Part shown: positions 25,053 through 46,829 of the stretch, piece after piece
How the letters are laid out: each line of letters opens with the position of its first letter
Position numbering within the stretch: the first letter of the stretch is position 1
Source: a virus
Lineage: Duplodnaviria > Caudoviricetes
Virus record (IMG/VR): IMGVR_UViG_3300035190_000328
Span: 1-53,058 of that record
Length of the DNA: 53,058 nt
Direction: 5' to 3' (one strand)
The notes under the pieces: model-generated
The model's input: only the letters and a program-made list of their open reading frames with translations
Told to the model about the DNA's origin: nothing
Databases searched by the model: none
Translations under genes and position numbers: made by a program

Positions 25053-25580
25053 ATGCGTAAAATTAAATTTCTACCTGATACAGGTAACATTATTACCCTT
25101 GAAGCTGCTGAAGAATTAACAGTAGGTCAATTTATTGAAGCTCTTCAAGAAAAAGGCGGTCAGTTTGATCTATCTAAAAATTTATTAACTGAAAAGAAAT
25201 CTAAAGCTTCTTTTCTAACTTCAGATTCAGTATTACCAGCAGGTGATATTTCTTTGTTTAGTACTATTAAAGATCCTAAAGGTAATGCTCCTACTTCAAG
25301 ATCTGATGTTTATGAAGCTATTAAAGATTTGAAAGCTGCTTATGGTGATTATGTTAAAACTCATTTTGGTAACTACACTCAAGTAGCTACTGATACGTTA
25401 TTACAATTACTAAAAACCTTTAGTAAATCAGAAGCTCGTAAATCTTTAAGCAAAGGTAATGCTAAAACTACTAAAACTGTAGCTAAAAAAGCAGTAACTA
25501 AAACTACTGCTTCTAAAGAAGATTTAGAACTTAGGGCAGCACAAAAATCATTTACTCCTAAAATCTACAGGAATCGTTAA
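25053..25580 (+). CDS. ubiquitin-like (beta-grasp) domain fused to a helical domain and Lys-rich tail
   Basis: Residues 1-77 follow the Ubl pattern (KIKF..GNIITLE, TVGQFIEAL helix, DSVLPAGD-ISLF) and end in PKG77. Confidence 0.7.
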   Translation: MRKIKFLPDTGNIITLEAAEELTVGQFIEALQEKGGQFDLSKNLLTEKKSKASFLTSDSVLPAGDISLFSTIKDPKGNAPTSRSDVYEAIKDLKAAYGDYVKTHFGNYTQVATDTLLQLLKTFSKSEARKSLSKGNAKTTKTVAKKAVTKTTASKEDLELRAAQKSFTPKIYRNR

Positions 25581-25604
25581 TAACTTTTGATTGTTTGTTT
25601 AATT

Positions 25605-25634
25605 AAGGGCTATCTATAATGGGTAGCCCTTTTA
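25605..25634 (+). terminator. intrinsic terminator between the Ubl and E2-like genes
   Basis: AAGGGCTATCT-ATAAT-GGGTAGCCCTTTTT. Confidence 0.8.
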
Positions 25635-25644
25635 TATTTAAATT

Positions 25645-26475
25645 ATGGATAATAAAGAGATATTAAGAAACATAGTATTAGAAGATGAAATAACAAATAT
25701 TTCTTTTAATGAAAATACATTTACTATATACTTTGGAGATGTAGAAAATACTGATAAAGAAGGACATATTTCTTTATTATTAGAAACTTATATAGAAATA
25801 CCTTATGATTTTACAGCAAATAACCTTAAATTACATAGAGGTATAGTAGATATATTAGAGTGTAATCCTAATGATAACAATGAATACTCAGGATTTGTAC
25901 ATTATAATGGCTATAGTTTTTGTTATGGGGGGTGTGGAGTAGATCATACTTGTAATATTATAAGAGCAGATGGATTAACTTCTGATTTATTTAATAAATT
26001 GATAATTCAATTTCAGAATTATCTATCTCATAGTTCCCATAATACTATAGGAACTTCTTGGAGAAAGATAGAATTTACTTCCAATACAACTGTAACAAAT
26101 ACTGTAGATAAATTTATTACTATAGATGGATTAAAAATTCCTCAAATTATAAAGAAAACTACTACTAATACTGTACTTGATAAATTAGTATATACAGAAC
26201 CCTATGAATTTATCAAAGAAGTACCAAGTAAAAAGTTTACATATAATAATGAGATTATAACTCCTAAAATAGTAAAACATAAAATAGAAGGTATTATACA
26301 AGATACACACCAATATATAGGAGTAGATGTTAGGCAAATATTAAAAAATATAAAACAAAAAACAATTCAAAAATATAAAGATGAAATTAATCTTAAACCA
26401 AAATATACTACAGAAAATTTCTTACATAAACTCACAGATAAGTACAGTAGAGTGGATGGGAGTTTTTATATATAA
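25645..26475 (+). CDS. putative E2-like (UBC-fold) protein
   Basis: FVHYNGYSFC93YGG followed by an amphipathic helix; lies between the Ubl and JAB genes. Confidence 0.45.
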   Translation: MDNKEILRNIVLEDEITNISFNENTFTIYFGDVENTDKEGHISLLLETYIEIPYDFTANNLKLHRGIVDILECNPNDNNEYSGFVHYNGYSFCYGGCGVDHTCNIIRADGLTSDLFNKLIIQFQNYLSHSSHNTIGTSWRKIEFTSNTTVTNTVDKFITIDGLKIPQIIKKTTTNTVLDKLVYTEPYEFIKEVPSKKFTYNNEIITPKIVKHKIEGIIQDTHQYIGVDVRQILKNIKQKTIQKYKDEINLKPKYTTENFLHKLTDKYSRVDGSFYI

Positions 26476-27361
26476 AACTAAAGGGAGTTTTCCTAATAAT
26501 TTTATAATGGAAGCTGTAGATGTTTTATTAATGGCTAAAGGTAGTGCAGCAGAAGTAGGTTATGTTACTGATGTAAGTTTAATGTCTGATTTATGTGATT
26601 TAGGCTTAGAAGAATATTCAAGAGGGTTAATACATTCTCACGTCAATATGGCAACAAATCCTTCAGGTACAGATATTAAAGAATTAGAATCAGCAGCTTC
26701 TACAGGGCCTTATTACTTATCAGTAATAGTTAACAATAGAATGGAAGTTAATGCTTTAGTAGGTATTAAAACAGTTGTTAAAGGTACTGTAAAATCTACT
26801 ATTAAAAATCTATTTGGTAAATTAGTAAATACAGGTAGTAAAGTAGTAGAATATGAAGATTATGAAATAATTAATTGTGAAGTAGTTAAACAGGATTATG
26901 ACTTACCTAAATATATGGTAGAAGTTAATGAAAGATTAGCTAAAATACAAGATTATAATACTGCTGCTCATAGTAAAAGATCTGGTTATATTAAATCTGA
27001 AAAAGCCAAAGAGAAATACAGACAAAATCAAGCTATAAATCAAAGGGGTTCTCAAGCTCAACTATTTGATGATTGGCCTCAAATGGGAGGAGAATCTCCT
27101 TTAATGTTACAACCTGATGATATTGGAGATCCATTTGAAGGATTTATTAAAGAAGCTTTAGAAATGTATTCAAGATATGCTGATAATACTCTAAAACTAG
27201 CTAAAGATACAGCATTTAGTATTAGCAATGATCCTTATAACTATGGTATTCCTAATTCTAGTTTTATAGAGTATCTTAAAAAGAATCCTTACATTAGTGT
27301 AGGATATACAGCAGGTATATTAGCTGAATTAGTAGGAGAGGAGGTAGTTAATGGAGGTTAA
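26381..27361 (+). CDS. JAB/MPN+ (JAMM) metallo-isopeptidase
   Basis: VEWMG...HSH-x7-S-x2-D (HSHVNMATNPSGTD), an exact JAMM motif. Confidence 0.9.
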   Translation: MKLILNQNILQKISYINSQISTVEWMGVFIYKTKGSFPNNFIMEAVDVLLMAKGSAAEVGYVTDVSLMSDLCDLGLEEYSRGLIHSHVNMATNPSGTDIKELESAASTGPYYLSVIVNNRMEVNALVGIKTVVKGTVKSTIKNLFGKLVNTGSKVVEYEDYEIINCEVVKQDYDLPKYMVEVNERLAKIQDYNTAAHSKRSGYIKSEKAKEKYRQNQAINQRGSQAQLFDDWPQMGGESPLMLQPDDIGDPFEGFIKEALEMYSRYADNTLKLAKDTAFSISNDPYNYGIPNSSFIEYLKKNPYISVGYTAGILAELVGEEVVNGG

Positions 27362-28046
27362 AACTAATAGAATTGAAGGAGCTGTTTGGCATAAAGCCAT
27401 TCAAAAACAAACTACTACTATTGTAGGATTAGGTGCTACAGGGAGTTTTGTTAGCTTATTATTAGCAAGAGCAGGAATTAATCATTTAAGATTAGTAGAT
27501 TTTGACTACTATGAAATTCATAACTTAGGATCTCAATTGGCTGATTATCAAGACATTGGAGAAAATAAAGCTCGAGCTACTGCTAATAAATTAGCATTAT
27601 TTTCATCAGCTACTACTGTTTCTGTTTATAATGATAGAATTGAAAATAAATCAGGGTTACTAACCCCTAATTATTCTAATATAGTTATTTCAGCTTTAGA
27701 TAGTATGTCAGGTAGAAAATACATATTTGAAACTATGAAAAGTAATAATTACAGAGGTCAATTATTATTAGATAGTAGAATAGGTGCTGAATATCTTGAA
27801 GTTTATTGTATACCTATGAATAATCAAGATTATGTAGATAGGTATGCTGAAACTTTATTTTCTGATGAACAAGGTAATACTGGAGCTTGTAATTATCAAC
27901 AATCTTCTCATTCAGCTTGTATGGCAGCTTGTGAGATGGTAAAACTTGTAACTAATTGGGTTACTAATAAATTAATGGAGGATGATGATATTCCTTTTAA
28001 AATTACTCACGATTTAAGAACAAATAACTATGGAGTTCATTATTAG
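27351..28046 (+). CDS. ThiF/E1-like adenylating enzyme
   Basis: VGLGATGS, DFD...HNL..Q, GENKA, ALDS..GR and DSR; candidate catalytic Cys180 (GAC). Confidence 0.9.
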   Translation: MEVKTNRIEGAVWHKAIQKQTTTIVGLGATGSFVSLLLARAGINHLRLVDFDYYEIHNLGSQLADYQDIGENKARATANKLALFSSATTVSVYNDRIENKSGLLTPNYSNIVISALDSMSGRKYIFETMKSNNYRGQLLLDSRIGAEYLEVYCIPMNNQDYVDRYAETLFSDEQGNTGACNYQQSSHSACMAACEMVKLVTNWVTNKLMEDDDIPFKITHDLRTNNYGVHY

Positions 28047-28827
28047 AGAACATCAACCATTTACATCAGTAGGTAATCCTGTAGAAATACATATTTTAAA
28101 TAGTATGACAGGATGGATGTCAGAAAAATTTAGATTAAAAATTCTTAGGTATATAGCTAATGGTTTAAATGGTAAAACTGAAATAGATGGTGTTACTGTA
28201 TTATACCATAACTATAATTTTTACAATATTAACAAACAGCTAATAGGTTCTTATTGTAATCTTAATCCTGTATTACTAGAAACTATATCTGTTAGTAATG
28301 TATCAAATGATAGAATTTATATATTATCTAAAGATTATTTTAATCAAAAATTTGCTATTAAATTAAGTAAACAATCAGGTAAAGAAGTATTATTAGTATC
28401 TCATACATTATTTACTAATTGGTGTAATTCTCCTGTTAATCTTAGAGTAAGTCAAAGTATGGCTAATAGGATTATAGAAGAATATCTAATGTCTAGTTTT
28501 GGTATTCAAAGGATAGATAACCCAGATGTTACTAATATAGTTACTGATACTGCTGATGTAGGTTTAACTAATAATGGTGAAGGGTTATTAGCACAGGTAT
28601 TAAATGGTACTACTACAGTACCTTATAATCCTGCTGGTACTGATTTAAATGCTATTTTAACTATTGCTACAGAATTAGGAATTGCTGATACTAATCATGT
28701 TAGAGAAGCTATTAATGATGCAGCTAATGGTAGAGATGAACTTCAAACAGAAACAGAAACTACTACTCATATTGATCAGATATTAGAAGATGTTACTGAA
28801 GAAGATAGGAATGATCATCCATTTTAA
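28030..28827 (+). CDS. hypothetical protein with an acidic tail, overlapping the E1 gene
   Basis: 265 aa; last gene before the terminator. Confidence 0.7.
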   Translation: MEFIIREHQPFTSVGNPVEIHILNSMTGWMSEKFRLKILRYIANGLNGKTEIDGVTVLYHNYNFYNINKQLIGSYCNLNPVLLETISVSNVSNDRIYILSKDYFNQKFAIKLSKQSGKEVLLVSHTLFTNWCNSPVNLRVSQSMANRIIEEYLMSSFGIQRIDNPDVTNIVTDTADVGLTNNGEGLLAQVLNGTTTVPYNPAGTDLNAILTIATELGIADTNHVREAINDAANGRDELQTETETTTHIDQILEDVTEEDRNDHPF

Positions 28828-28837
28828 TTATTAACTT

Positions 28838-28864
28838 AGAGGGAGCTAACAACTCCCTCTTTTT
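28838..28864 (+). terminator. intrinsic terminator
   Basis: AGAGGGAG-CTAACAA-CTCCCTCTTTTT. Confidence 0.85.
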
Positions 28865-28876
28865 AAATTTATAGAT

Positions 28877-29152
28877 ATGAAATTAGATGCTATTGAAAAC
28901 ATTAGGCATTTATTTGGTAAAAATATTACTGTTTCAAGGATAAGTGATATAGCTAAGTATATAGGAGTAGGGGATTTTACTCATGTAGCTAAATTCCAAT
29001 ATAAAGATATTGTATTTTACAGAGCTAGTATTAGAAGATTTAATTGGGCTAAATACTTTGATATTGAAAGAGAAGCTGCTATTGCTGTAGATAAGAAATT
29101 AATAGAAAAAGGAGAAGAACCTGTTAATATATTAAAGAAAAAATGCAGTTAA
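28877..29152 (+). CDS. AP2-like DNA-binding domain protein
   Basis: YRASI....KYF..EREAAIAVD...G. Confidence 0.55.
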   Translation: MKLDAIENIRHLFGKNITVSRISDIAKYIGVGDFTHVAKFQYKDIVFYRASIRRFNWAKYFDIEREAAIAVDKKLIEKGEEPVNILKKKCS

Positions 29153-29994
29153 TAAAACAAAAAACTAAAACACTTATTACACGGGATAATGGAAGATCAG
29201 CAGATGCTATTACTCCTAATTTTGTATACGGGTGTTTAGGAGGTTGTATGAAAAGTTACTGTTATGTAGGAAGATTTAATAATGATAAAGTTTACTTAAA
29301 TGAAAATACAGAAGCTATAATGAAATCTGTATTAGAATGGGTTAAAGATAAACCTTGGCCTAAAATACCTAATCAAACTGATAATCAATATTATACATTT
29401 GACATTGGCTGCTCTACTGATGTTCCTTTGCTAAGTAAACATTATGACTGGCAAAAAGTATTTAATTATTTTAATTCTTTTGAGAAAATAAAAAGTACAT
29501 TTGCTACTAAATATCCTACAAAGTTTGATGTTACTAAATATACTTTAAATAAAGAAAAGAATAGAATTAGAGTAAGTTTAATGCCTCAAAAATATAGTAA
29601 TGTACTAGAACCTAATACAGATTTAATAGAAGATAGAATTAATTGTATACCTAAATTACAAGAACATTTAGAAGTGCATATTAACTTTAGTCCTATAATT
29701 TATGAAGAAGGTTGGTTAGAAAAATATGAAAGTTTATTTAAGACTTTAAAAGAAAAGAATATTGATGTACCTTGTGAATGTATATTTTTAACTTACAATA
29801 TTACTTCTTATACTAATAATTCTGAAGAAGTAAATAAGTTATGTTGGAAACCAGATATACAAGAATCTAAAAACTCAACTTATGCTGATAATAATATAAG
29901 ATATAAATATCAAATTAAAGCTAAGATGATACAAGATTTTAAAGAACTTTATGCTAAATATTTTAATATTAATAATATAAGATATATATTTTAA
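29143..29994 (+). CDS. spore photoproduct lyase-family radical SAM protein
   Basis: NGRSADAITP..GC...C....CYV, FDIGCSTD, FATK, RIRVSLMP and VHINFSPII. Confidence 0.8.
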   Translation: MQLIKQKTKTLITRDNGRSADAITPNFVYGCLGGCMKSYCYVGRFNNDKVYLNENTEAIMKSVLEWVKDKPWPKIPNQTDNQYYTFDIGCSTDVPLLSKHYDWQKVFNYFNSFEKIKSTFATKYPTKFDVTKYTLNKEKNRIRVSLMPQKYSNVLEPNTDLIEDRINCIPKLQEHLEVHINFSPIIYEEGWLEKYESLFKTLKEKNIDVPCECIFLTYNITSYTNNSEEVNKLCWKPDIQESKNSTYADNNIRYKYQIKAKMIQDFKELYAKYFNINNIRYIF

Positions 29995-36651: not shown

Positions 36652-37314
36652 CTATTTGCAGGTAGAGTCTATAGACCCTTTATTAATAGTTTGTAATAGT
36701 GTTATTTGTTGGTCTTTATTTAACCAATCTAAATTATTGTAATCTTCTTTAAAAGAATTTAAAGCATCTTCATAAGTAGGATATATTTCTCCTGCTACTT
36801 CAAACTGATTTTCTCCTAATTGGTTAATACTATTACCTACAGTAGTTACAGGTAAATCTATTTCTACACTATAATTATTAGCAAAATCTTTAGTAACAGT
36901 AAATACTTCAGGAAATGCAGATTCTAAGTTTTTCATAGTATCTACATTAACCTGTAATTTCCTAGTATTATAAGCTTTCTTTTCTTCTTTATCAAACTCA
37001 ATACCTCTGGTTATAGTATATTTACCTGTTTTATTAAATACAGGTTCATATTTATGAATTATACCTACTAGGTTATCTAGTACTTCTTGTAAAGTAGTTC
37101 CATTATTAATAAGTTCTGCAACTTGTTTAGCTTGATTATTAGCTTTAACCTGCATATATTTAGAATACTCAGTAATAGTTGGATAAACATAGTTAATACT
37201 ATCTTTACCTGTTCTAAACTTAGTATAAGCTATAACTCCATCTTCTGCTACTTTAGTACCAGCCCATAAAGCTAAACTTCTAAACAATGGTAATCCTTTA
37301 TTTACACAACTCAT
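36652..37314 (-). CDS. small cargo-module protein
   Basis: 220 aa, MSC...TCK, coupled to both neighbours. Confidence 0.75.
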   Translation of the reverse strand: MSCVNKGLPLFRSLALWAGTKVAEDGVIAYTKFRTGKDSINYVYPTITEYSKYMQVKANNQAKQVAELINNGTTLQEVLDNLVGIIHKYEPVFNKTGKYTITRGIEFDKEEKKAYNTRKLQVNVDTMKNLESAFPEVFTVTKDFANNYSVEIDLPVTTVGNSINQLGENQFEVAGEIYPTYEDALNSFKEDYNNLDWLNKDQQITLLQTINKGSIDSTCK

Positions 37315-40300
37315 TATAAACAGTCTTTAACAAATGTAGTAAAATCTTCTGAATCTATAGTAGTATCTTGTTGAGCAGCTCTTTGTTTTAAATGATCTAT
37401 AAGAGCTTCATCATTAACATAGTTAGTAGCTATTTCAGGTTTATTAGCCTTAATCCAATCTAAAGTTTCAGTAACTTTTTGCATATCTACTTCTAAAACA
37501 GGTTTAGCTGCTACAGCAGTTATCTCAGAATCTAAAGTAGATTTATTATTAGTAGAAATCATTACTAACCTATTAGAAGGTCTTGAAACTGCTACATATA
37601 AGCTTTTGTTCTTATTAACTGTAGAACCACCATTAGTAGAACCTAGTATATTATCTTCAAAAACATATACATTATTATAAGTAGAACCTTGAGCTTTATG
37701 AGAGGTTATAGCATACCCATATTGAAGATTAGCAAAATTAGCTTTTAAAGCAAATGCTAATTGTTTATCAGTTTGGAATAAACTAGCCACATCTTTATTA
37801 AATTTCTCTTTACTACTTTCTGCAATAGCTAGTATTTTTACTCCGTAAGCTACCATTTTTAAATCTGGTAGTATTTCACCTTCTTCATTTAATAACTCTA
37901 ATTCTACTACATTATAGTTAAAATTAAAAGATCTACTGCCCATTTTAGCTGAGAATACACTAATACTTCCTGTAAAGTTATTTATGGCTTTTAAAGAATG
38001 TATTATGTAATCATCAGAATTATATATTACAGGTACAGGAACTCCTCCTAAATCTGTAGTATATGTATCATAAGCAGTTATAAATTCTCCAACATTAAAT
38101 TGGTTTTTAGCTTTTTCTCCCCAAAGTTTCTCTCTAATCTTAACATTAAGGTTTTTAACACTTAAAGGAGAACTATGGTTCTCATTATTAAATGTCACAG
38201 CTTTAACATACTCAGGGTTATTATTAGCTTCTTTAATATCTTTAACCATACTATCTAAAGCTTCATCTACATTATTAGTAAATAGTAATGTAGATTGGCT
38301 AATAGGATCTATTTTATTAAATCTAAAACCTTCAGGTATAGCTATTAATTTAGGAGTTTTACTCTCTATATTTCTAGCTACTAAAGTTCCAGCACCTATA
38401 ATAGGGCTATTAGCAGCTTGTCTCATTTTTTCAACTAAAGTATATTGATTTTTAATATCAAATACAGGACTATCTACATCCTCACCTACAGGAGGTAATT
38501 GTGCATTATCTCCCATAAATATAACTTTAGCTGAAGGTTTTTTAAGCTCCATAATTTCTTTATAAATATTTGGAGAAATCATTGAAGCCTCATCTACTAT
38601 AATTAAATCTAATTGTTTAATAGGTACTTTACCTTGCTGTCTAGCATATAAATCTGGAGTAAACTCTCCTGTAGATTCATTAAGTTTAATAGCTAGTGCT
38701 GATGCTACAGTAAAAGCATTCTTTTTACCTATAGATTTACCTAAAACTTTTTTAGCTTTATGTGCAACAGTAATACCTCCTATTCTACCAGTATAACCTT
38801 CAATAGTTTTTTTGATAATAGTAGTTTTACCTGTACCACCTCTACCTATTAGAGTAAATTCTGTAGCAGGAGATCTTAAAAACCCATCTAATAAATCAAG
38901 AGCTTGTTGTTGCCCTTCATTAGCAAAAACTCCTGGGAATAATTCATATTTATTCTTTTTAACTCCTTCCATATTTGTTGAAGGTAAAGTTACATAATTT
39001 TCACCTTCTATAATAGGAGTATAAGCATGATAGTAATATTTATCTCCAATAGCTCCTGTAGGTAAGTATTGTTTACCTTGGAATGGGAAGAATACTCCAT
39101 CTATGACAGCATGAGACCTTGTTAGTAAGTATACTTCTTTCTTACTATTACCTACTAATATTATAGGGCCTTTTTGATATATCTTATCACTATCTAAAGG
39201 TTGTCCTGCTTGATAACCATCTCTTGAAACATATTTTCTTAATCTTTTTTCTACTATACCATTTTGTTGTAGAAACTGTTCTACAAATTTATGAGGTATT
39301 ACAGGTTCCATATTCTTTAAAGCCTGTAAAGACATATCTATATATTCCTTTGGTAGTAACTTCTGATAACTAATAGGGCTATCAGAAATACCTGATTGTA
39401 ACAATTGAGCTATAATAAGTTTCTTAGCAAAAGGTTGAGTTACAGGATTATCATATAATTCCTTAAATCCTTCTGCTAATATTTCTTGTTGTACAGGGTT
39501 AACCCTTTGAGATACTAATTTAATATTATAAGTACTTCTAGGTTTAATATCCCCTTTGTCTTTACCTTCTTCTGGTAATAGAGGTATCATTTCCTGTAAG
39601 AATTTATTATCAGGAAACTTATCTTTTAAATCTAATAACTCAGTCATTAACTCACTAGTTCTTAGTATACTAGAGTATTCACTTAAAGTTTTACCTGAAT
39701 CTAAAGGAGATGTTATTAATCCAAAAGTTGCTAACTCCCTATCAGCTCTTTCTAATATAGTAGTTAAGTTATTAGCTCCTGAGAACCTATATAAATCATA
39801 GATAATATCCATAATTTCAGGCCCTCTAAGGTATTTATCAAAACTCACAAACTGCATACCTGAAGACCAAATCTTATCAGCTTCCATAGCAGTATTTTTA
39901 AGTTCTTTTAATAGGGTATCTTCAAATAGGTTAGGTAAGTTTTTAAAAGATTTATCTTCTAAAACATCATAATACATCTTTCTTTTAATCCAAGAATCTA
40001 CAAGTGTTTTACCAGCTTGTTTAGTATCTTGATTAGAAACCTGTTGTATCTTATTTAATTGAGAACCTGCTCTATTATATAACTCAAAGCTGTATAGTAC
40101 CTGAACTTGTTGTTTTAACTCATCTAAAGACATAGTATTCATATCTTTAGACATATTATCTTTAAGTTCTGCTTTAGTTATGTAGTTAACAAGAGTTTTT
40201 CCTTCTTTAAGTTCATCATAGTATTCAGCTAAATCTAATGCTTCACCATCTTCTATTTCTTGCTGAGTAAGATCTACTTCACTTCTAAGCTTAGACATCT

Positions 40301-43300
40301 TAGATATTAAACTATTTATTATTTTATAACCTTTCTCTTTACCTTTAAAGTTTAAGATTGAGTTATTTTTATCTAGTAAACTAGTATATTCTCTAATTAT
40401 AGGTTGGTTAAGAAAGTAAATAACCTCATCAAGAGGTATTCTCTGTCTTAATAATATATTAACTACACCAAAAGTATTAAAACTTACATTAGTGTAAGTA
40501 ATATAATCATTACCTATTTTAGAAACATCTACAGCAGCAGATATAAATTGTTTTAATATAGCTGAAATCTTTTGTTTATTATCTATATCATATACTGAAT
40601 CCATAGGATATTCAGATAGTTTTTGTATACTATCAAAATATAGTGTATATTCTGGACTATAGTATGATATATCTGCTTGTTGAAATAGAGCATGTGAAGT
40701 TGTAGCTAGTGCAGCAGGGCCTACTAATTGTTTAAACTTCAATAGTTTATTTCTAGTAGCTACTATCATCATAGGAGATAATATCTTAGTATACTCATAA
40801 GATTTAATGCCCCCTAAACTTTGTCCAGTAGCGGCTATTACTTCTAAAGCTACTTTCTTTAAATCATCAGTACTATCTGAAGTTAATAGGTTTTCTTTAG
40901 CTTCTTCTGAAGTAACTACTTGAGCTATAATATCTATAACCTCATTCTCAGCTATATACTGATCATAATTTCTTAAAAGATTATTTTGTTCTTTTAGCTG
41001 AAACAATAATTTCTGGATTACAGGATTATTATCCATTTCCTTAAATTTATCTTCAGCATATTTAATATTTTCTAAAGAAACTTCATCATCTTCTACTTGC
41101 TCATCTAAAAACTCTTTGTAATCTTTAAATTCTTCTTTATAAGGTTTTAATAAACTCTTAGTAACCTTAATATCAATTAATAAACTAGCTTTAGATTGTA
41201 ATACTTTAACTTGGTTTCTAACAGTATAATAATGTGGAACATAAGTTGTAAGTTTATCCACGTCAAAGTCAGAACCTGCTTTAATAGTTATACCATTAGG
41301 TACTACAATTACATTACCTAATGTAGGTGCTAGAAATTCCTTAACTAAAACAGCTTCAATAGCATTTTGACCTTGGGTAGGTATCCTATAAGGCACTAAA
41401 TTCCATTCTTCTCTAAACTTAGGTAATACCTCTTTATTAAATTTGTTTAACTTATCCTCAAAAGTATCTCCTTCTAATTCTAATACTAAAGGCATTAGTT
41501 TTTGAGGTAAAGCTATTTTAACTTCAGCATAAGAAACTCCATATCCTGATTCAGCTTTCTCATAGAATTTAAGGGAATTATCTAAATCAGGAACCTGAAT
41601 AAACATTTCCCCTGGCATATCTCTTTTAACAACTTCTCTGTTATAAAAAGACATTAGGTTATTCTCTAATTTAACCTTCTCAGCCATTGCATCAGCTCTA
41701 ATTACATCTTGTGATAGAATAGCTTGTAATTGTTCTTTAAAGGTCTCAGAAGTCTTCCTTTGAAGCATAGCTTCAGTTACTTCTTTCTTTAATTTATCTT
41801 TATCTGTAAATAAATAAACCTTGTTTTCTCCAATACCTTCTATTGTAATAGATAGATTATCTAAGAATTTACTAAACTTTTGAGCAGTAATATCATTTAA
41901 CAAATTATTATAGGTATCAATTACTTCTTTAGTAACTTTAACATCACCATTAGCATAGTGTAATTCAGGATCTTTAACAATATCAACAAAATCTAATTTA
42001 GACATCTGAGTACCTAAAGTTACTCTCTTATGTTCTTCAGGAGAAGTTTCTAAATGCTCCCCCATAAAAGAATAATTAATTCTTTGTGTTACATTGTATT
42101 CATCAGAATCAATATCTTGAGGTTCATTTATATTATTACCTTTAGAGCCTGAAGCAAATACACCTAAACCTATTTGAGCTTTCTGCATTTTAGCAGCCAT
42201 CTCAACTAACTTAGGCATACTATATTGCATACTTCTTGGAAGTACAGGCATTACTGCCATTTTATATAAATCTGTTATATAATACCCAGGAGTATAATCT
42301 TCTCCATAAGCAGGGCCAGCATAACCATATTTCTTAACTGCTAAAGCAAATGTTTCATATATACCCTTAGCAGGATATACATCTGTTAAGGTATTTTCAT
42401 AATCATATAAAGATTGAAAATCTTCATTCCATTGACCTAACCTTAACATCATACTTCTAATAAAATCTAAAGTACCTATACCAGAAGCATCTGCTAAATC
42501 TCCTTTTTCATTACTATCAATAGCTCCTTTTATAAACTCTTGATAAGTACCTGTTATATCTTTAAATACAATTGTACTTTCAAAACCATCTTCCATTTTA
42601 CCATCTGCTCTTTTATATAAAGCATTGATAGATTGATTTAAAGAAGGGCTATTAATAGCAGGTTTCTTAGATGAGGTAAACAAGGTAAACCTCTTAATAG
42701 GATCTTTAAAGTTATTTAAAGGGCCTGTAAATAAGTTAGATTGCTCATAAACACTTTGCCAATGCTTAATCATATAGGTTCTAAAGTTATCTTCAGATTC
42801 CTTATCTAAATGATTAGTATCATATTTAGCAACCTTATCTTTAAAAGCAGCTACTTCATTAGTTATAAATTCTTCTACTTTAGATTTAACTAAAGCATAA
42901 TCTTCTAGATTTTCTCTTGAGTAATCTAAAGGATTTTTCTCAAGAACCATAACTCCTTCAAAAGTTACTAAATGTCCACTAGGAGTAGCCTTATCTCTAG
43001 TACTTTGAGGTAAATTAGCTACATATTGTATTTCATTAAATACAGCTTGCACTAAAGAATCTATAGAAGGTTCTTCAGGCATTTCTAATTGCCAAGCTAA
43101 TTCTACACCCCTATCAGCAGATGGTAATACAGGATATATATTATTCATAGTAGCCCTGTAGTGAAGCATAGCCTGAGCAGCTTCATCCATATCTGCATAA
43201 TCTGTAGGTAATCCTAAAGAAGATTTAGCTTGTATCATATTAACAAGCTTTCTGTTAGATTTAATCCATAGAGAAGATTCTGTAGGGAAATTACCTAAAT

Positions 43301-46300
43301 AATCAGCATTACCTTGTTTAATAATACTATCTCCTATAGCATAAGCTGTAGGTAAACTTAAAGCATATCTTTTAGCATTCTTAGAATCTAATACATTTAA
43401 ATCTGTAAATTCATCATTATATAATGTAGCTTGTTCAGCTAAAGAATTAATTTCTTTATTTATAGATAATCCATTTTTATCAAAAAAATAATCTACAGGA
43501 GTATCTTTAGTTAATCCTCTTAAAGCAGCATCTATCTTAGATAAGTCTCCTTTTTTAGAATATTTACTATAGTTTTCACTATCAGGAAATCCTAGTAAAT
43601 CTAATAATTCTTGATTAGTAGATTTATCTAAAGCTTCTTTTAATTTATCTAATTGAATTAATAACCTACCTTCTGGAGTTAGTTTAACTAAAGGAGACCT
43701 TGATAAATTAGCTCTCCAAATATCTTTAACTTTATTAATATTTCTTTCCTTTTCAAATATAATTTTAAAAGGCTCTTCTCCAGATTTTATATCATTAAAC
43801 TGCATAACAAGAAATTCTTGTTTAGCTTTAGCAAATGATTGTACAAATTTTAATTGTAGATTTAATTCATCTTTTGTTTGAGGAATTTTATCTAATTTAA
43901 ACCATTCAATTAGTTTATTAATCTCAGGTCTTTTCTCAGCATATTTTTTAAGTTCTGTTAATTGACTTTCTAAAGTAAAGTTATTAGCTAATTTAGCATG
44001 TAAAGCATGCAGGGTTTTAACATAATCTACAGCTTGAGGTAATCCTACACTATTTAAAACTACTTTACCTTCCTGATTAATAACAGGTAAAGCTGATATA
44101 ATAAGTTTAACAAGACTATCATCTAAATCCTCAACTGACGTTTTGTCAGAATCTTTAATACCTAATCTATCTTTTACTTCAGTTTCCTCAATTTCTTCTT
44201 CAGGAAGACTGACAAATTGTCCTATAAATTCTTTATGCTTTACAAATACTTTCTGTAAATCCTCTTTACTAAAAGTATCTTTAGCTACAAATTGTAACAT
44301 TCTAGGCCCTACAAAGCTTATATAAGAATCTAAATCCTTAAATACACCTTGTCCTATTAATTTATCTAATTCAGAAGATAAGCTATTTAAACCTACGGTT
44401 TGGTTGAGTTTACTTATAATCAAAGCATGGTTAGAAGCTACTGTCATATTAATAGCATCTGGGCTTAAACTATAAGCATCATTACCTGATTGAGGTATTA
44501 TATTACTACCTTGATAATAACCTGATAATATCTTATCATAAAAATCATTTAATGTATTACCACTAAATAACTTCTTAATAAAATTCCATATTCTTTCAAA
44601 TATACTTAACTCTTCAGGACTAGTTTGTTTAGTATTAGCATAGGTTCTAAAATCTTCAGCTAATAATTCTTCTTCTAAGTATTCTGTAGATTTATCACCA
44701 TATAGATCCCTTAATTCAGCAATTCTATCTTGATAATCTTCTCTATTCCTAATCCCTTTTAATAAAGTTTCTCTTTCTTGAGGAGTAGTAAACAACCTAA
44801 ATACTCTATGAAAAGCTTCATGGTATTCAGTACCTTCAGGACTTTGAGTACTAACAAGTATTTTACCATCTTTAGTAAAGGCTCCAAAAGCTTTACTTTG
44901 AATAAGTTTATTTACTACAGATACATAGTTATTTACATAATCAGAACCAAATAAATTAGTAAGATTTTGTTGTATTTGATCTATATTTCTAAGTATAGGA
45001 GAACCTATAGTAGATAATTGAATAGAACCTGTATCTCTAGCTTCATCTACAGTAACTTCATTCCATGTATTACCATATTCATCAGTAACAACTTTAGCAT
45101 TATAACCTTGTTTCTTCAAAACATTTGCTATAGTGTTTTCATAGAAATTATAAATAGGTTTTAAAGCTGCTAATCCTTCAGGCCCATTAACTCTTTCAAG
45201 CTCTGCTTTAAGTTGAGTTATTTCTATATCAAATTCTGTTTCTTTATCTTTTTTTAATTTTTCAACAGTTTCTTTAGAACCAGATTCCATATAAGAATAC
45301 CCTGTACTTCCATTGGCTTCTTTTGTTTTAAGAATATAATCTCCATTAATAAGTTGTGAACTTTGTCTGGTTAATCCCGCCTCATTTAAACTAACTACAC
45401 TATACTGTATTTTATCTCTTTCTATTTTTTTATTTTCAAGATCTTTAATCCTATCTTCTTTTTCTTTCTTAAACTCTTCTAAAGTACCATGCCCCTCAAC
45501 TTTACTAGCTGTATTACCTGTTGGAAATAATACTTTCTCATATCCTTTTTTAGCACTATCTTGTACAATAGATTTAACAAAGAATGTTACCCAAGCATTA
45601 TCTTTATTTAGGAGTTGTAAGAATTTATTTTGAGGAGATTTAATATCTTTAATTTTATATAAAGAATCAAATGCTTTAAAACTTTCCTCACTACCTACTT
45701 CATAATTAGTTTTTTCTACCCAACTATAATAAGCATCCCATTTAGCTTCCTGTAAATCTTCTCCTAAATTACTGGTAAATCTATCTTGACCTTCTAAACT
45801 ACTTTTATTTATTAAATCAATCCTATCTCTACCTTTCTGAAATAAATCAGATTGTACTTCTAGTATTCTACGGGTTTTAGGATTTGAATATTTAGCTTTT
45901 CTATATTCTTCTTCTGATATAATCTCTCCATTTTTCTTATGTTGAAAACCTTTACCTAAAGAATATTCTTGTGTATATTTATTTCCAGCAATTTCAAAAT
46001 CTTTTTCTTTATTTTGAATAGACATAGCTTGTTTAACAAAACTAGCTTCATCACTTCTAAACCAACCTATACCTTGATCCGTGCTGAAAGCACCATGTCC
46101 TTTAATAGAAGGAGTAATATCTGGAGTTTTTATTTCATTCTCTGTATAGTTAGTACCCCCAGGTACAGTTAGATTAGAATAATGACTTGTAGGTTTTTGT
46201 AATTCAGTAATTAAATAAGTTTCAGCTTCTTTTTCAGTTTTAAAAGATTTTAAAGGCATTGTAGTATAAATATCTACAATAGACCATCTTTTTTCTCCAT

Positions 46301-46829
46301 TATATTCAGTTTCTCTAATATTTAAATCTTTATTACCTCCTCTAGTAACTTCAGTTTGTACTGTATAACTATAATTAGTAATAATATCTAATATAAGATC
46401 TTCTACAGTATCATAATCCTTACTATCTATAAGATCTTTAATAATAAAAGCTTGTTGTTTACCTGCTATATTAGATACTTCAGATATAAACTTATCTTTA
46501 TTAGTTTTAGCAAATCTCTTGAATATCTGCTTACCTTTCTCTGTATTTAAGAAAGTAACAGACCTTAGTACATAATTAATAGCAAATTCTTGAGCTACAG
46601 GAACTAACATAAAAGCTGATTCACTATCAGGTTTTACATTATCTAAAGGATTACCTGTAACTTCTTGTTTAGTAAAGTCTTCTATAGGTTTATTACCATA
46701 AACTTCATCTAATATAGACATTCCCTCATCTAATAGCCAAGCTTTAAATGATTCTTCAGGCATACCTGTTTCAGGAATAATAGCCTTTATTTTAGGATTA
46801 TTCCCTACATACTTTACTATACAAGCCAT
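37314..46829 (-). CDS. virion-delivered RNA polymerase polyprotein with a zincin and a C-terminal SF1 (RecD-like) helicase
   Basis: YRIPTQ and GSDFDVDKL (41256-41270) crAss vRNAP motifs; HEAFH; GRGGTGKT, DEASM, GD.AQLPPV, HKAQGST and YVAVSR. Confidence 0.9.
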   Translation of the reverse strand: MACIVKYVGNNPKIKAIIPETGMPEESFKAWLLDEGMSILDEVYGNKPIEDFTKQEVTGNPLDNVKPDSESAFMLVPVAQEFAINYVLRSVTFLNTEKGKQIFKRFAKTNKDKFISEVSNIAGKQQAFIIKDLIDSKDYDTVEDLILDIITNYSYTVQTEVTRGGNKDLNIRETEYNGEKRWSIVDIYTTMPLKSFKTEKEAETYLITELQKPTSHYSNLTVPGGTNYTENEIKTPDITPSIKGHGAFSTDQGIGWFRSDEASFVKQAMSIQNKEKDFEIAGNKYTQEYSLGKGFQHKKNGEIISEEEYRKAKYSNPKTRRILEVQSDLFQKGRDRIDLINKSSLEGQDRFTSNLGEDLQEAKWDAYYSWVEKTNYEVGSEESFKAFDSLYKIKDIKSPQNKFLQLLNKDNAWVTFFVKSIVQDSAKKGYEKVLFPTGNTASKVEGHGTLEEFKKEKEDRIKDLENKKIERDKIQYSVVSLNEAGLTRQSSQLINGDYILKTKEANGSTGYSYMESGSKETVEKLKKDKETEFDIEITQLKAELERVNGPEGLAALKPIYNFYENTIANVLKKQGYNAKVVTDEYGNTWNEVTVDEARDTGSIQLSTIGSPILRNIDQIQQNLTNLFGSDYVNNYVSVVNKLIQSKAFGAFTKDGKILVSTQSPEGTEYHEAFHRVFRLFTTPQERETLLKGIRNREDYQDRIAELRDLYGDKSTEYLEEELLAEDFRTYANTKQTSPEELSIFERIWNFIKKLFSGNTLNDFYDKILSGYYQGSNIIPQSGNDAYSLSPDAINMTVASNHALIISKLNQTVGLNSLSSELDKLIGQGVFKDLDSYISFVGPRMLQFVAKDTFSKEDLQKVFVKHKEFIGQFVSLPEEEIEETEVKDRLGIKDSDKTSVEDLDDSLVKLIISALPVINQEGKVVLNSVGLPQAVDYVKTLHALHAKLANNFTLESQLTELKKYAEKRPEINKLIEWFKLDKIPQTKDELNLQLKFVQSFAKAKQEFLVMQFNDIKSGEEPFKIIFEKERNINKVKDIWRANLSRSPLVKLTPEGRLLIQLDKLKEALDKSTNQELLDLLGFPDSENYSKYSKKGDLSKIDAALRGLTKDTPVDYFFDKNGLSINKEINSLAEQATLYNDEFTDLNVLDSKNAKRYALSLPTAYAIGDSIIKQGNADYLGNFPTESSLWIKSNRKLVNMIQAKSSLGLPTDYADMDEAAQAMLHYRATMNNIYPVLPSADRGVELAWQLEMPEEPSIDSLVQAVFNEIQYVANLPQSTRDKATPSGHLVTFEGVMVLEKNPLDYSRENLEDYALVKSKVEEFITNEVAAFKDKVAKYDTNHLDKESEDNFRTYMIKHWQSVYEQSNLFTGPLNNFKDPIKRFTLFTSSKKPAINSPSLNQSINALYKRADGKMEDGFESTIVFKDITGTYQEFIKGAIDSNEKGDLADASGIGTLDFIRSMMLRLGQWNEDFQSLYDYENTLTDVYPAKGIYETFALAVKKYGYAGPAYGEDYTPGYYITDLYKMAVMPVLPRSMQYSMPKLVEMAAKMQKAQIGLGVFASGSKGNNINEPQDIDSDEYNVTQRINYSFMGEHLETSPEEHKRVTLGTQMSKLDFVDIVKDPELHYANGDVKVTKEVIDTYNNLLNDITAQKFSKFLDNLSITIEGIGENKVYLFTDKDKLKKEVTEAMLQRKTSETFKEQLQAILSQDVIRADAMAEKVKLENNLMSFYNREVVKRDMPGEMFIQVPDLDNSLKFYEKAESGYGVSYAEVKIALPQKLMPLVLELEGDTFEDKLNKFNKEVLPKFREEWNLVPYRIPTQGQNAIEAVLVKEFLAPTLGNVIVVPNGITIKAGSDFDVDKLTTYVPHYYTVRNQVKVLQSKASLLIDIKVTKSLLKPYKEEFKDYKEFLDEQVEDDEVSLENIKYAEDKFKEMDNNPVIQKLLFQLKEQNNLLRNYDQYIAENEVIDIIAQVVTSEEAKENLLTSDSTDDLKKVALEVIAATGQSLGGIKSYEYTKILSPMMIVATRNKLLKFKQLVGPAALATTSHALFQQADISYYSPEYTLYFDSIQKLSEYPMDSVYDIDNKQKISAILKQFISAAVDVSKIGNDYITYTNVSFNTFGVVNILLRQRIPLDEVIYFLNQPIIREYTSLLDKNNSILNFKGKEKGYKIINSLISKMSKLRSEVDLTQQEIEDGEALDLAEYYDELKEGKTLVNYITKAELKDNMSKDMNTMSLDELKQQVQVLYSFELYNRAGSQLNKIQQVSNQDTKQAGKTLVDSWIKRKMYYDVLEDKSFKNLPNLFEDTLLKELKNTAMEADKIWSSGMQFVSFDKYLRGPEIMDIIYDLYRFSGANNLTTILERADRELATFGLITSPLDSGKTLSEYSSILRTSELMTELLDLKDKFPDNKFLQEMIPLLPEEGKDKGDIKPRSTYNIKLVSQRVNPVQQEILAEGFKELYDNPVTQPFAKKLIIAQLLQSGISDSPISYQKLLPKEYIDMSLQALKNMEPVIPHKFVEQFLQQNGIVEKRLRKYVSRDGYQAGQPLDSDKIYQKGPIILVGNSKKEVYLLTRSHAVIDGVFFPFQGKQYLPTGAIGDKYYYHAYTPIIEGENYVTLPSTNMEGVKKNKYELFPGVFANEGQQQALDLLDGFLRSPATEFTLIGRGGTGKTTIIKKTIEGYTGRIGGITVAHKAKKVLGKSIGKKNAFTVASALAIKLNESTGEFTPDLYARQQGKVPIKQLDLIIVDEASMISPNIYKEIMELKKPSAKVIFMGDNAQLPPVGEDVDSPVFDIKNQYTLVEKMRQAANSPIIGAGTLVARNIESKTPKLIAIPEGFRFNKIDPISQSTLLFTNNVDEALDSMVKDIKEANNNPEYVKAVTFNNENHSSPLSVKNLNVKIREKLWGEKAKNQFNVGEFITAYDTYTTDLGGVPVPVIYNSDDYIIHSLKAINNFTGSISVFSAKMGSRSFNFNYNVVELELLNEEGEILPDLKMVAYGVKILAIAESSKEKFNKDVASLFQTDKQLAFALKANFANLQYGYAITSHKAQGSTYNNVYVFEDNILGSTNGGSTVNKNKSLYVAVSRPSNRLVMISTNNKSTLDSEITAVAAKPVLEVDMQKVTETLDWIKANKPEIATNYVNDEALIDHLKQRAAQQDTTIDSEDFTTFVKDCL

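Follow-up and report, generated by a model that had tools for sequence, protein, structure and literature searches.

Sequence and structure predictions point to a probable ubiquitin-like precursor fusion at the head of a five-gene cassette in crAss-like phages

Eukaryotic ubiquitin is made as ubiquitin–ribosomal protein fusions (UBA52 and RPS27A), and in the QbsE/QbsD/QbsC and CysO/Mec systems a JAB peptidase trims the residues that lie past the terminal glycine of a carrier protein. To our knowledge, bacterial conjugation of ubiquitin-like proteins (Ubls) is to date described as host defence (Bil and CBASS), and in phages only a Ubl/JAB pair of tail assembly has been described. In BilABCD, BilC, a JAB-type deubiquitinase (DUB), takes one residue off the Ubl BilA in a pre-processing step that exposes a glycine, and also cleaves an artificial Ubl–GFP fusion (PMC10557695). 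Sulfur-carrier triads of an E1 enzyme, a protein like ThiS/MoaD and a JAB peptidase, as well as the pair of Ubl (tail protein I) and JAB peptidase in lambda-type tail assembly, are described in PMC1779556. Here we describe a gene in a 53,058-nucleotide stretch of DNA from a tailed virus (Caudoviricetes; IMG/VR virus record IMGVR_UViG_3300035190_000328, positions 1 to 53,058, hereafter the window), which encodes a ubiquitin-like domain joined to a long C-terminal extension. This Ubl-fusion gene opens a predicted five-gene cassette that crAss-like phages carry in their DNA-replication (‘middle’) module, and BilABCD is the known system nearest to this cassette.

The encoded protein of 175 amino acids is probably the precursor (pro-Ubl) of a phage-encoded ubiquitin-like modifier, which the JAB peptidase of the same cassette would cut at G77. 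The gene and its parts are as follows.

25053-25580, + strand: Ubl-fusion gene, an open reading frame (ORF) of 175 amino acids with its stop codon at 25578-25580
25053-25283, + strand: ubiquitin-like (beta-grasp) domain, M1-G77, ending ...IKDPKG (AlphaFold2 model, Foldseek, VIA-align)
25281-25283, + strand: codon of G77 (GGT), the proposed scissile and activation glycine (sequence, conservation)
25284-25580, + strand: C-terminal extension N78-R175 and stop codon (model, conservation by segment)

In the translated ORF, G77 stands in the context ...IKDPKGNAPTSR..., or at greater length ...STIKDPKGNAPTSR.... The initial annotation had placed an internal PKG motif ending in G77 at 25281-25283, followed by a helical domain and a Lys-rich tail, with a strong terminator separating this gene from those of its enzymes, and each of these features was recovered: the GGT codon lies inside the 175-residue ORF, the model places helices at residues 83-133, the Lys-rich stretch AKTTKTVAKKAVTKTTASK occupies residues 137-155 of the 175, and a hairpin follows the gene at 25605-25631. 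For comparison across the family, an alignment of 46 sequences was built from eight close homologues and 38 of 40 representatives of a wider search; the other two, P0019 (1763 amino acids) and P0024 (2101 amino acids), were left out as repeat proteins that matched over short stretches. Most members (43/46) have the long, fused form, two are short, and P0017 is a fragment from a contig of 887 nucleotides.

In the AlphaFold2 model, which was built with this alignment (mean predicted local distance difference test score, pLDDT, 87.8), residues 1-77 fold as ubiquitin, with a beta-grasp formed by strands 2-7, 14-18, 43-47 and 66-72 and a helix at 24-33, and pLDDT is about 94-97 over residues 1-70. 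The score dips to 71 across residues 71-80, and after the junction the model continues with helices over 83-133 and a further helix at 155-166, the two separated by residues 134-154, which are modelled with low confidence. Foldseek searches against the PDB matched ubiquitin, NEDD8, SUMO and the Bacteroides fragilis ubiquitin, with template-modelling (TM) scores by target of 0.65-0.72 (E = 5.6e-4 and TM 0.70 for the B. fragilis protein). VIA-align, which is independent of Foldseek, returned 38 chains at Z of at least 8, all of them beta-grasp proteins, and scored ubiquitin at Z 8.7-9.5. As this alignment pairs residues 2-76 of the model with ubiquitin 1-75, G77 occupies the position of ubiquitin G76.

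Conservation of this glycine in homologues, named in the initial annotation as a check on the proposed cleavage, is complete, with a glycine at the junction in all 46 members drawn from the two sequence searches. The residues around it follow the pattern K-x(0-2)-G in 45 of the 46 (P0027 reads EAG there); the motif KDPKGN is invariant in 8/8 close homologues, and the junction reads KG in the window’s clade and K[SA]G in the crAss001-like and FpV4-like proteins. None of the junction motifs has a second glycine ahead of the first, in contrast to a C-terminal Gly-Gly. The loop formed by residues 73-78 is the best-conserved segment of the protein, with a mean top-residue frequency of 0.58 versus 0.44 in the Ubl domain and 0.47 in the helical domain, while conservation is lowest in the four residues after it (linker 79-82), a segment of variable length. 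Among the other proteins of the cassette, none ends in a conserved glycine. The window’s JAB protein does end in VNGG (...EEVVNGG, 27350-27361, overlapping the start of the E1 gene), but this was rejected as a substrate for E1 because the seven other aligned homologues lack it, including those of L001, L003, L006 and the crAss001 group.

Several members of the family are naturally short or split, and their ORFs end one or two residues past the junction glycine (P0042, L006 and cr106_1). L006 is a metagenomic contig of 5.9 kb that comes from a related phage. Its first cassette gene is an ORF of 80 amino acids that ends ...LPKDPKG-NI and stop, and is found by a hidden Markov model of the N-terminal half at 1.3e-27; its stop codon overlaps the ATG of the E2-like gene, after which come JAB and then E1. 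A profile of the C-terminal half had no match on the 5.9 kb of this contig. P0042, present on three contigs of up to 6687 nucleotides, is similarly a protein of 79 amino acids with the end KDPKG-N. In cr106_1 (L011:4501-5704, MT774378.1), a complete Crassvirales genome, a Ubl ORF of 92 amino acids with 82% identity to crAss001 gp79 over residues 1-90 ends ...KIKSG-KF and stop, and a separate ORF of 130 amino acids with its own ATG shows similarity (E = 3e-8) to the last 50 residues of gp79. An HNH endonuclease ORF lies exactly between the two, the first of which has a stop codon and the second a start codon of its own. A scan of this insertion with the Rfam intron models gave no match at E ≤ 1, which makes splicing less likely. 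By sequence and model, the partner joined directly after the terminal glycine in the long form is an unrelated protein, and in cr106_1 the two halves are separate ORFs. The protein thus appears to have been broken twice in evolution, each time one or two residues past the glycine and with the enzyme genes retained, which we regard as the strongest evidence in this analysis; breaks at this point in phages that keep the enzymes suggest that the Ubl is functional as a polypeptide of its own that bears a short tail.

The arrangement of the genes downstream is also consistent with a modifier and its enzymes. The terminator and the four genes that follow it are listed here.

25605-25641, + strand: intrinsic terminator, a hairpin at 25605-25631 followed by a T-run (12 pairs, 5 of them G-C, loop of 3)
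25645-26475, + strand: E2-like protein of 276 amino acids, candidate E2 (alignment, AlphaFold2, VIA-align)
26381-27361, + strand: JAB/JAMM metallopeptidase, ORF of 326 amino acids, candidate processing and deconjugating enzyme (JAMM motif HSHVNMATNPSGTD)
27351-28046, + strand: E1-like adenylating enzyme of 231 amino acids (Pfam ThiF, 5.8e-24)
28030-28827, + strand: fifth cassette gene, 265 amino acids (follows E1 in L001-L003, in L006, where it is partial, in crAss001 as gp75 and in FpV4 as gp49)
28838-28860, + strand: second terminator-like hairpin, which closes the enzyme genes (8 pairs, 5 of them G-C, then a T-run)

The hairpin at 25605-25631 has a predicted free energy of -16.5 kcal/mol (z = -3.09), a stability that was not reached by any of 200 shuffled sequences; between 22000 and 31000 there are seven terminator-like sites versus 2.5 ± 2.1 expected. 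A hairpin with a T-run follows the long-form gene in all nine loci compared (the window, L001-L003, crAss001, FpV4, cr128_1, cr85_1 and DAC17), where the gaps to the next gene span 44-74 nucleotides and consist largely of the hairpin, with free energies of -16 to -28 kcal/mol. In the stand-alone Ubl gene of L006 the gap to the next gene is zero, and in cr106_1 the hairpin stands after the separate C-terminal ORF. In the window, three nucleotides separate the T-run from the next ATG (25645), and the gaps elsewhere are mostly hairpin. This leaves no space in which a promoter could lie, and transcription of the enzyme genes must hence depend on read-through. From this arrangement it can soundly be inferred that a leaky terminator would yield the modifier in excess over the enzymes.

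The E1-like protein has a clear ThiF adenylation domain. ThiF was its sole family above the Pfam cut-off, profile matches in the PDB include MccB, UBA3, MoeB, UBA5, ThiF and Cap2, and Cys180 in the motif GACNYQQS is invariant in 23/23 sequences. With a length of only 231 amino acids, a separate mobile CYS domain is doubtful. The crAss001 E1, gp76 (L004:5548-6699), is longer at 383 amino acids, and as the window’s E1 matches its last ~230 residues only, the crAss001 protein has an extra ~150 amino acids at its N-terminus. The candidate peptidase carries an HSHx7SGxD motif that is invariant in 8/8 aligned homologues, and its profile matches are weak (Pfam Prok-JAB at 0.018, below the cut-off, and PADLOC JAB at 0.0049); its real start may be the ATG at 26456. 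The JAB and gp78 homologues of the crAss001 group are longer than their counterparts in the window. In two related loci (L001:9371-11463 and L002:9378-11475) the JAB gene is broken right at the HxH motif, with ...GLIHL as the end of the upstream ORF and MATNFSGTD as the beginning of the downstream one, and the gap holds an ORF of 282 amino acids on the opposite strand with LAGLIDADG-like motifs recognised by eye; this looks like a homing-endonuclease insertion or an intron in the active site. In L003 the JAB gene is uninterrupted.

Assignment of the 276-residue protein as an E2 is a well-motivated lead rather than a finding. Its N-terminal ~135 amino acids have a UBC/RWD-like topology in the AlphaFold2 model (pLDDT 82), in which an N-terminal helix, a four-stranded meander, a Cys loop and two helices follow in the order of the UBC elements, and H86 and C93 of the motif SGFVH...FC are invariant in 12/12 sequences. 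A wide VIA-align search listed 50 matches, 29 of which are E2/UBC, RWD or UEV proteins by title, with Z of only 3.8-5.2, and the Atlas leads (Prok-E2_D, E2-CBASS and UQ_con) were all below threshold. Foldseek against the PDB gave no match at E ≤ 0.001, a PDB profile search none at E ≤ 10, the Pfam scan of 12 members no E2 family at E ≤ 1, and PADLOC no match. For the fifth protein no family and no PADLOC model was matched; the Atlas leads that would make it glycosyltransferase-like were below threshold and are not trusted.

A beta-grasp protein beside JAB and E1-like enzymes could also be a sulfur carrier of the ThiS/MoaD/QbsE kind, in which JAB would trim the C-terminus, the E1-like enzyme would adenylate it and the resulting thiocarboxylate would serve a phage nucleotide or cofactor modification. 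The short, MoeB/ThiF-like E1 fits such a role, as do the MoaD-type chains among the beta-grasp matches of VIA-align (Z 7.8-8.4) and a gene 300 nucleotides downstream of the cassette for a radical S-adenosylmethionine (SAM) protein like spore photoproduct lyase (SPL). We nevertheless consider this reading improbable, given that the candidate carrier ends in KG or K[SA]G rather than GG, that the 231-residue E1 matches only ThiF above the Pfam cut-off and has no rhodanese match, that the cassette includes an E2-like protein with an invariant Cys, and that the neighbouring genes encode uracil-DNA glycosylase (UDG), an exonuclease, a primase and the SPL-like radical SAM protein, with no genes for cofactor biosynthesis. 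In addition, we know of no conserved extension of 98-200 amino acids in ThiS, MoaD or QbsE carriers.

The E1 scored best against the PADLOC models of CBASS E1-E2 proteins (2.6e-15; all 25 matches listed, of 34, are such models), and JAB weakly matches the CBASS JAB models, which raises the question of counter-defence. Under this explanation JAB, E1 and Ubl would mimic or compete with the CBASS (Cap2/Cap3) or Bil proteins of the host, and the fusion would be a decoy substrate; the presence of the cassette in lytic phages, together with its absence from bacterial genomes in a narrow pattern scan, agrees with this. Against it, the set is complete, its order is conserved and it lies among replication genes across distant crAss-like lineages, and a conserved, self-contained set in such a position points to a core phage function. 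Counter-defence, which we consider very improbable, does not conflict with cleavage at G77.

If the protein is indeed a precursor, the fusion would be made from a transcript that begins upstream and in most cases stops at the hairpin, and transcripts that read through would provide smaller amounts of the enzymes. JAB would cut after G77 (K-G|N), giving equal amounts of a 77-residue Ubl with a C-terminal glycine and a helical protein of 98 residues. E1 would then adenylate G77 and probably take the Ubl onto Cys180, from which the E2-like protein (Cys93) would hand it to lysines of the targets, and JAB might also reverse the conjugation. More tentatively, it is conceivable that crAss-like phages carry a complete Ubl conjugation system of their own in the replication module (Ubl, E2, JAB, E1 and a fifth factor), with a modifier made as a fusion precursor in the manner of eukaryotic ubiquitin, a leaky terminator that sets the ratio of modifier to enzymes, and a C-terminal partner made in equal amount whose end motifs might dock on replication proteins and so link tagging to DNA replication.

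The C-terminal extension is organised into the variable linker (79-82), the conserved helical domain (83-133, with the motif HFGNYTQ), a Lys-rich region (134-154) and the last helix (155-166). Within the helical domain, T109 of HFGNYTQ is kept in 44/44 of the members that have that column. The charge of the C-terminal part is less uniform. It is basic in the window’s clade (isoelectric point, pI, of about 10) and has a pI of at least 9 in 25/43 members, but is acidic (pI < 7) in 16/43; crAss001 gp79 has a mixed-charge stretch with an acidic end, FpV4 gp53 has a Glu/Lys-rich stretch, and the Lys-rich stretch is poorly conserved across the family. The window’s fusion protein matched no Pfam family at E ≤ 0.1 and no PADLOC model, and the family profile matched no PDB sequence at E ≤ 1. 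These Pfam and PDB-sequence scans yielded no DNA-binding family for the extension, and at the same thresholds no ribosomal-protein partner; the only Pfam family to match more than one of the 46 members was HC2, in two members and over low-complexity sequence. The initial annotation’s proposal that cleavage would release a basic nucleic-acid-binding protein therefore does not hold as a general trait of the family, given the acidic members, the poorly conserved Lys stretch and the lack of a matching DNA-binding family, and the descriptions of the extension as a histone-like nucleic-acid binder or an acceptor tail are speculation. The other part of that proposal, a Ubl made as a precursor, is supported by the ubiquitin fold, the junction glycine, the gene order, the split forms and the terminator.

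Two clade-specific motifs occur at the very end of the extension, AAQxSFxPxL..R in the window’s clade (25515-25577) and EIxxMFxFV in the crAss001 group (L004, L007, L008, L009 and L011), and the latter is retained on the separate C-terminal ORF of cr106_1. By eye, these end motifs look like docking peptides. They bear on another explanation, that the protein is never cut and that its N-terminal half is a permanent UBL domain of the kind present in BAG1, Rad23 and UBX proteins, which docks the helical part on a partner such as, perhaps, the replisome or the enzymes encoded next to it, while E1 and JAB act on another substrate. Conserved motifs of this kind would suit such a protein, the fusion is the commonest form in the family (43 of the 46 are long), its two halves are equally conserved, and the top Foldseek match of the whole model is a protein with UBL and BAG domains (4hwi_B), though with a poor TM of 0.34. 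An uncut protein nevertheless seems unlikely, as the split and short forms end one or two residues past the glycine in phages that keep the enzyme genes, E1 would be left with no other conserved C-terminal glycine in the cassette, and conservation peaks at the junction loop.

Several observations weigh against cleavage of a precursor. Conservation is similar in the helical domain and the Ubl (mean top-residue frequencies of 0.47 and 0.44, respectively), as would also be expected of a stable two-domain protein. The linker is modelled at a pLDDT of ~71 and is hence not clearly disordered. The junction is a single glycine after Lys or Ser rather than GG, a site at which cutting by this JAB is presumed, and all steps of the mechanism set out above are inferred. 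With respect to the split forms, L006 spans only 5.9 kb and the missing C-terminal half is established for that stretch alone, while an undetected intron in cr106_1 could restore the fusion, for which the negative Rfam scan is not decisive. Lastly, the E2 assignment relies on weak fold similarity (Z ≤ 5.2), with negative Foldseek, Pfam, PADLOC and PDB sequence searches.

The cassette recurs among crAss-like phages. The order of Ubl-fusion, E2-like, JAB, E1 and fifth gene is shared by the window, three IMG/VR loci (L001-L003), crAss001, FpV4, cr128_1, cr85_1 and DAC17, and in these loci as in L006 the E2-like, JAB and E1 genes invariably come after the Ubl gene. Relatives of E1 and the Ubl occur in Crassvirales of the Steigviridae (crAss001, PhiCrAssBcn isolates, DAC15/17, cr85_1, cr106_1, cr111_1, cr112_1, cr126_1 and cr128_1), and also in the FpV4-like phages of Flavobacterium psychrophilum. 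In crAss001 the cassette comes directly after the primase gp80, and its genes are annotated as hypothetical (gp79, gp78 and gp75), ‘metalloprotease domain’ (gp77) and ‘thiamine biosynthesis protein ThiF’ (gp76); the replication genes of this phage are placed in the ‘middle’ class in PMC8375218. The DAC17 homologue of gp79, DAC17_88 (L009:2016-2768), is annotated with 227 amino acids and so starts inside the beta-grasp, while the open frame covers 250, and its annotated start is probably too far downstream. In tblastn searches of deposited phages, neither the window’s Ubl-fusion nor the short Ubl of L006 had a match, while the distant members P0028 and crAss001 gp79 did. Alignment-based pattern scans (A4 and A5) of viral contigs returned no loci, and the family was not found in bacterial genome contigs using two close patterns only, which is weak evidence for its absence there.

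The window itself belongs to a virus record estimated to be 44% complete. Its + strand encodes a replication module, with DNA polymerase, helicases, primase, a Sak4-like annealing protein, exonuclease and UDG, and just past the cassette and its second terminator lies a gene for a 283-residue protein of the spore photoproduct lyase family (29143-29994; radical SAM, Pfam 5.6e-12). Giant ORFs of 1263, 3171 and 1765 amino acids lie on the - strand, the second of which (37314-46829, -) matches a Dda-like helicase (PHROG 325, 2.7e-68) in its last ~500 residues, while the 1263- and 1765-residue ORFs beside it had no PHROG match.

In the human gut, few viruses are as abundant as the crAss-like phages. 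The cassette provides lytic members of this group, including the cultivable crAss001, DAC17 and FpV4, with a full set of candidate conjugation enzymes. If the precursor reading is correct, the Ubl-fusion would be a prokaryotic-virus counterpart of the ubiquitin-fusion genes, the annotation of five conserved Crassvirales genes would be corrected, and crAss001 on B. intestinalis would offer a tractable system in which to ask what a phage tags during replication. In the literature searched, we found no paper in which crAss-like phages are connected to ThiF, JAB or ubiquitin-like proteins, and term look-ups in PMC10136315, PMC6235969 and PMC8375218 returned no mention of ThiF, metalloprotease or gp79.

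Compared with described systems, the phage cassette shares features with several and corresponds fully to none of them. The lambda-type pair is likewise a Ubl and a JAB peptidase encoded by a tailed phage, but it lies in a tail-assembly cluster without E1 or E2, whereas the crAss-like genes lie among replication genes together with E1 and an E2-like protein. With type II CBASS it shares a JAB partner and an E1 whose adenylation domain is closest to the PADLOC models of Cap2; it differs in that E1 and the E2-like protein are separate ORFs and the substrate is a true beta-grasp Ubl, and no member of the CD-NTase family was found among the 11 proteins scanned (five of the cassette and six neighbours). 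The Qbs, CysO/Mec and ThiS/MoaD systems likewise combine a beta-grasp protein with a JAB peptidase and an adenylating enzyme of the E1 type, but the phage cassette lacks GG, a rhodanese match and biosynthetic neighbours, and has an E2-like protein with an invariant Cys. Similar to UBA52 and RPS27A, the modifier is N-terminal, its partner starts directly after the terminal glycine and cleavage would give equal amounts of the two; in contrast, the phage partner had no match to any known family, ribosomal proteins included, the candidate protease is a JAMM enzyme encoded next door, and the proposed cleavage is after a single glycine.

BilABCD is found in a bacterial defence island, while the phage cassette is part of the replication module of lytic crAss-like phages, with a minimal E1 of 231 amino acids, a fifth conserved gene and a weakly assigned E2. 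The phage Ubl, E2-like and fifth proteins match no PADLOC model, and E1 and JAB match generic models only. The sequence past the junction is also of a different kind, being a conserved protein of 98-200 amino acids in the phages versus one residue in Bil. Despite these differences, the two have the same cast of Ubl, E2, JAB-type DUB and E1, apparently in the same order as judged from the lettering of the Bil genes, and the Ubls of the split phage forms have the kind of short tail with which Bil-type Ubls are trimmed by their JAB enzyme.

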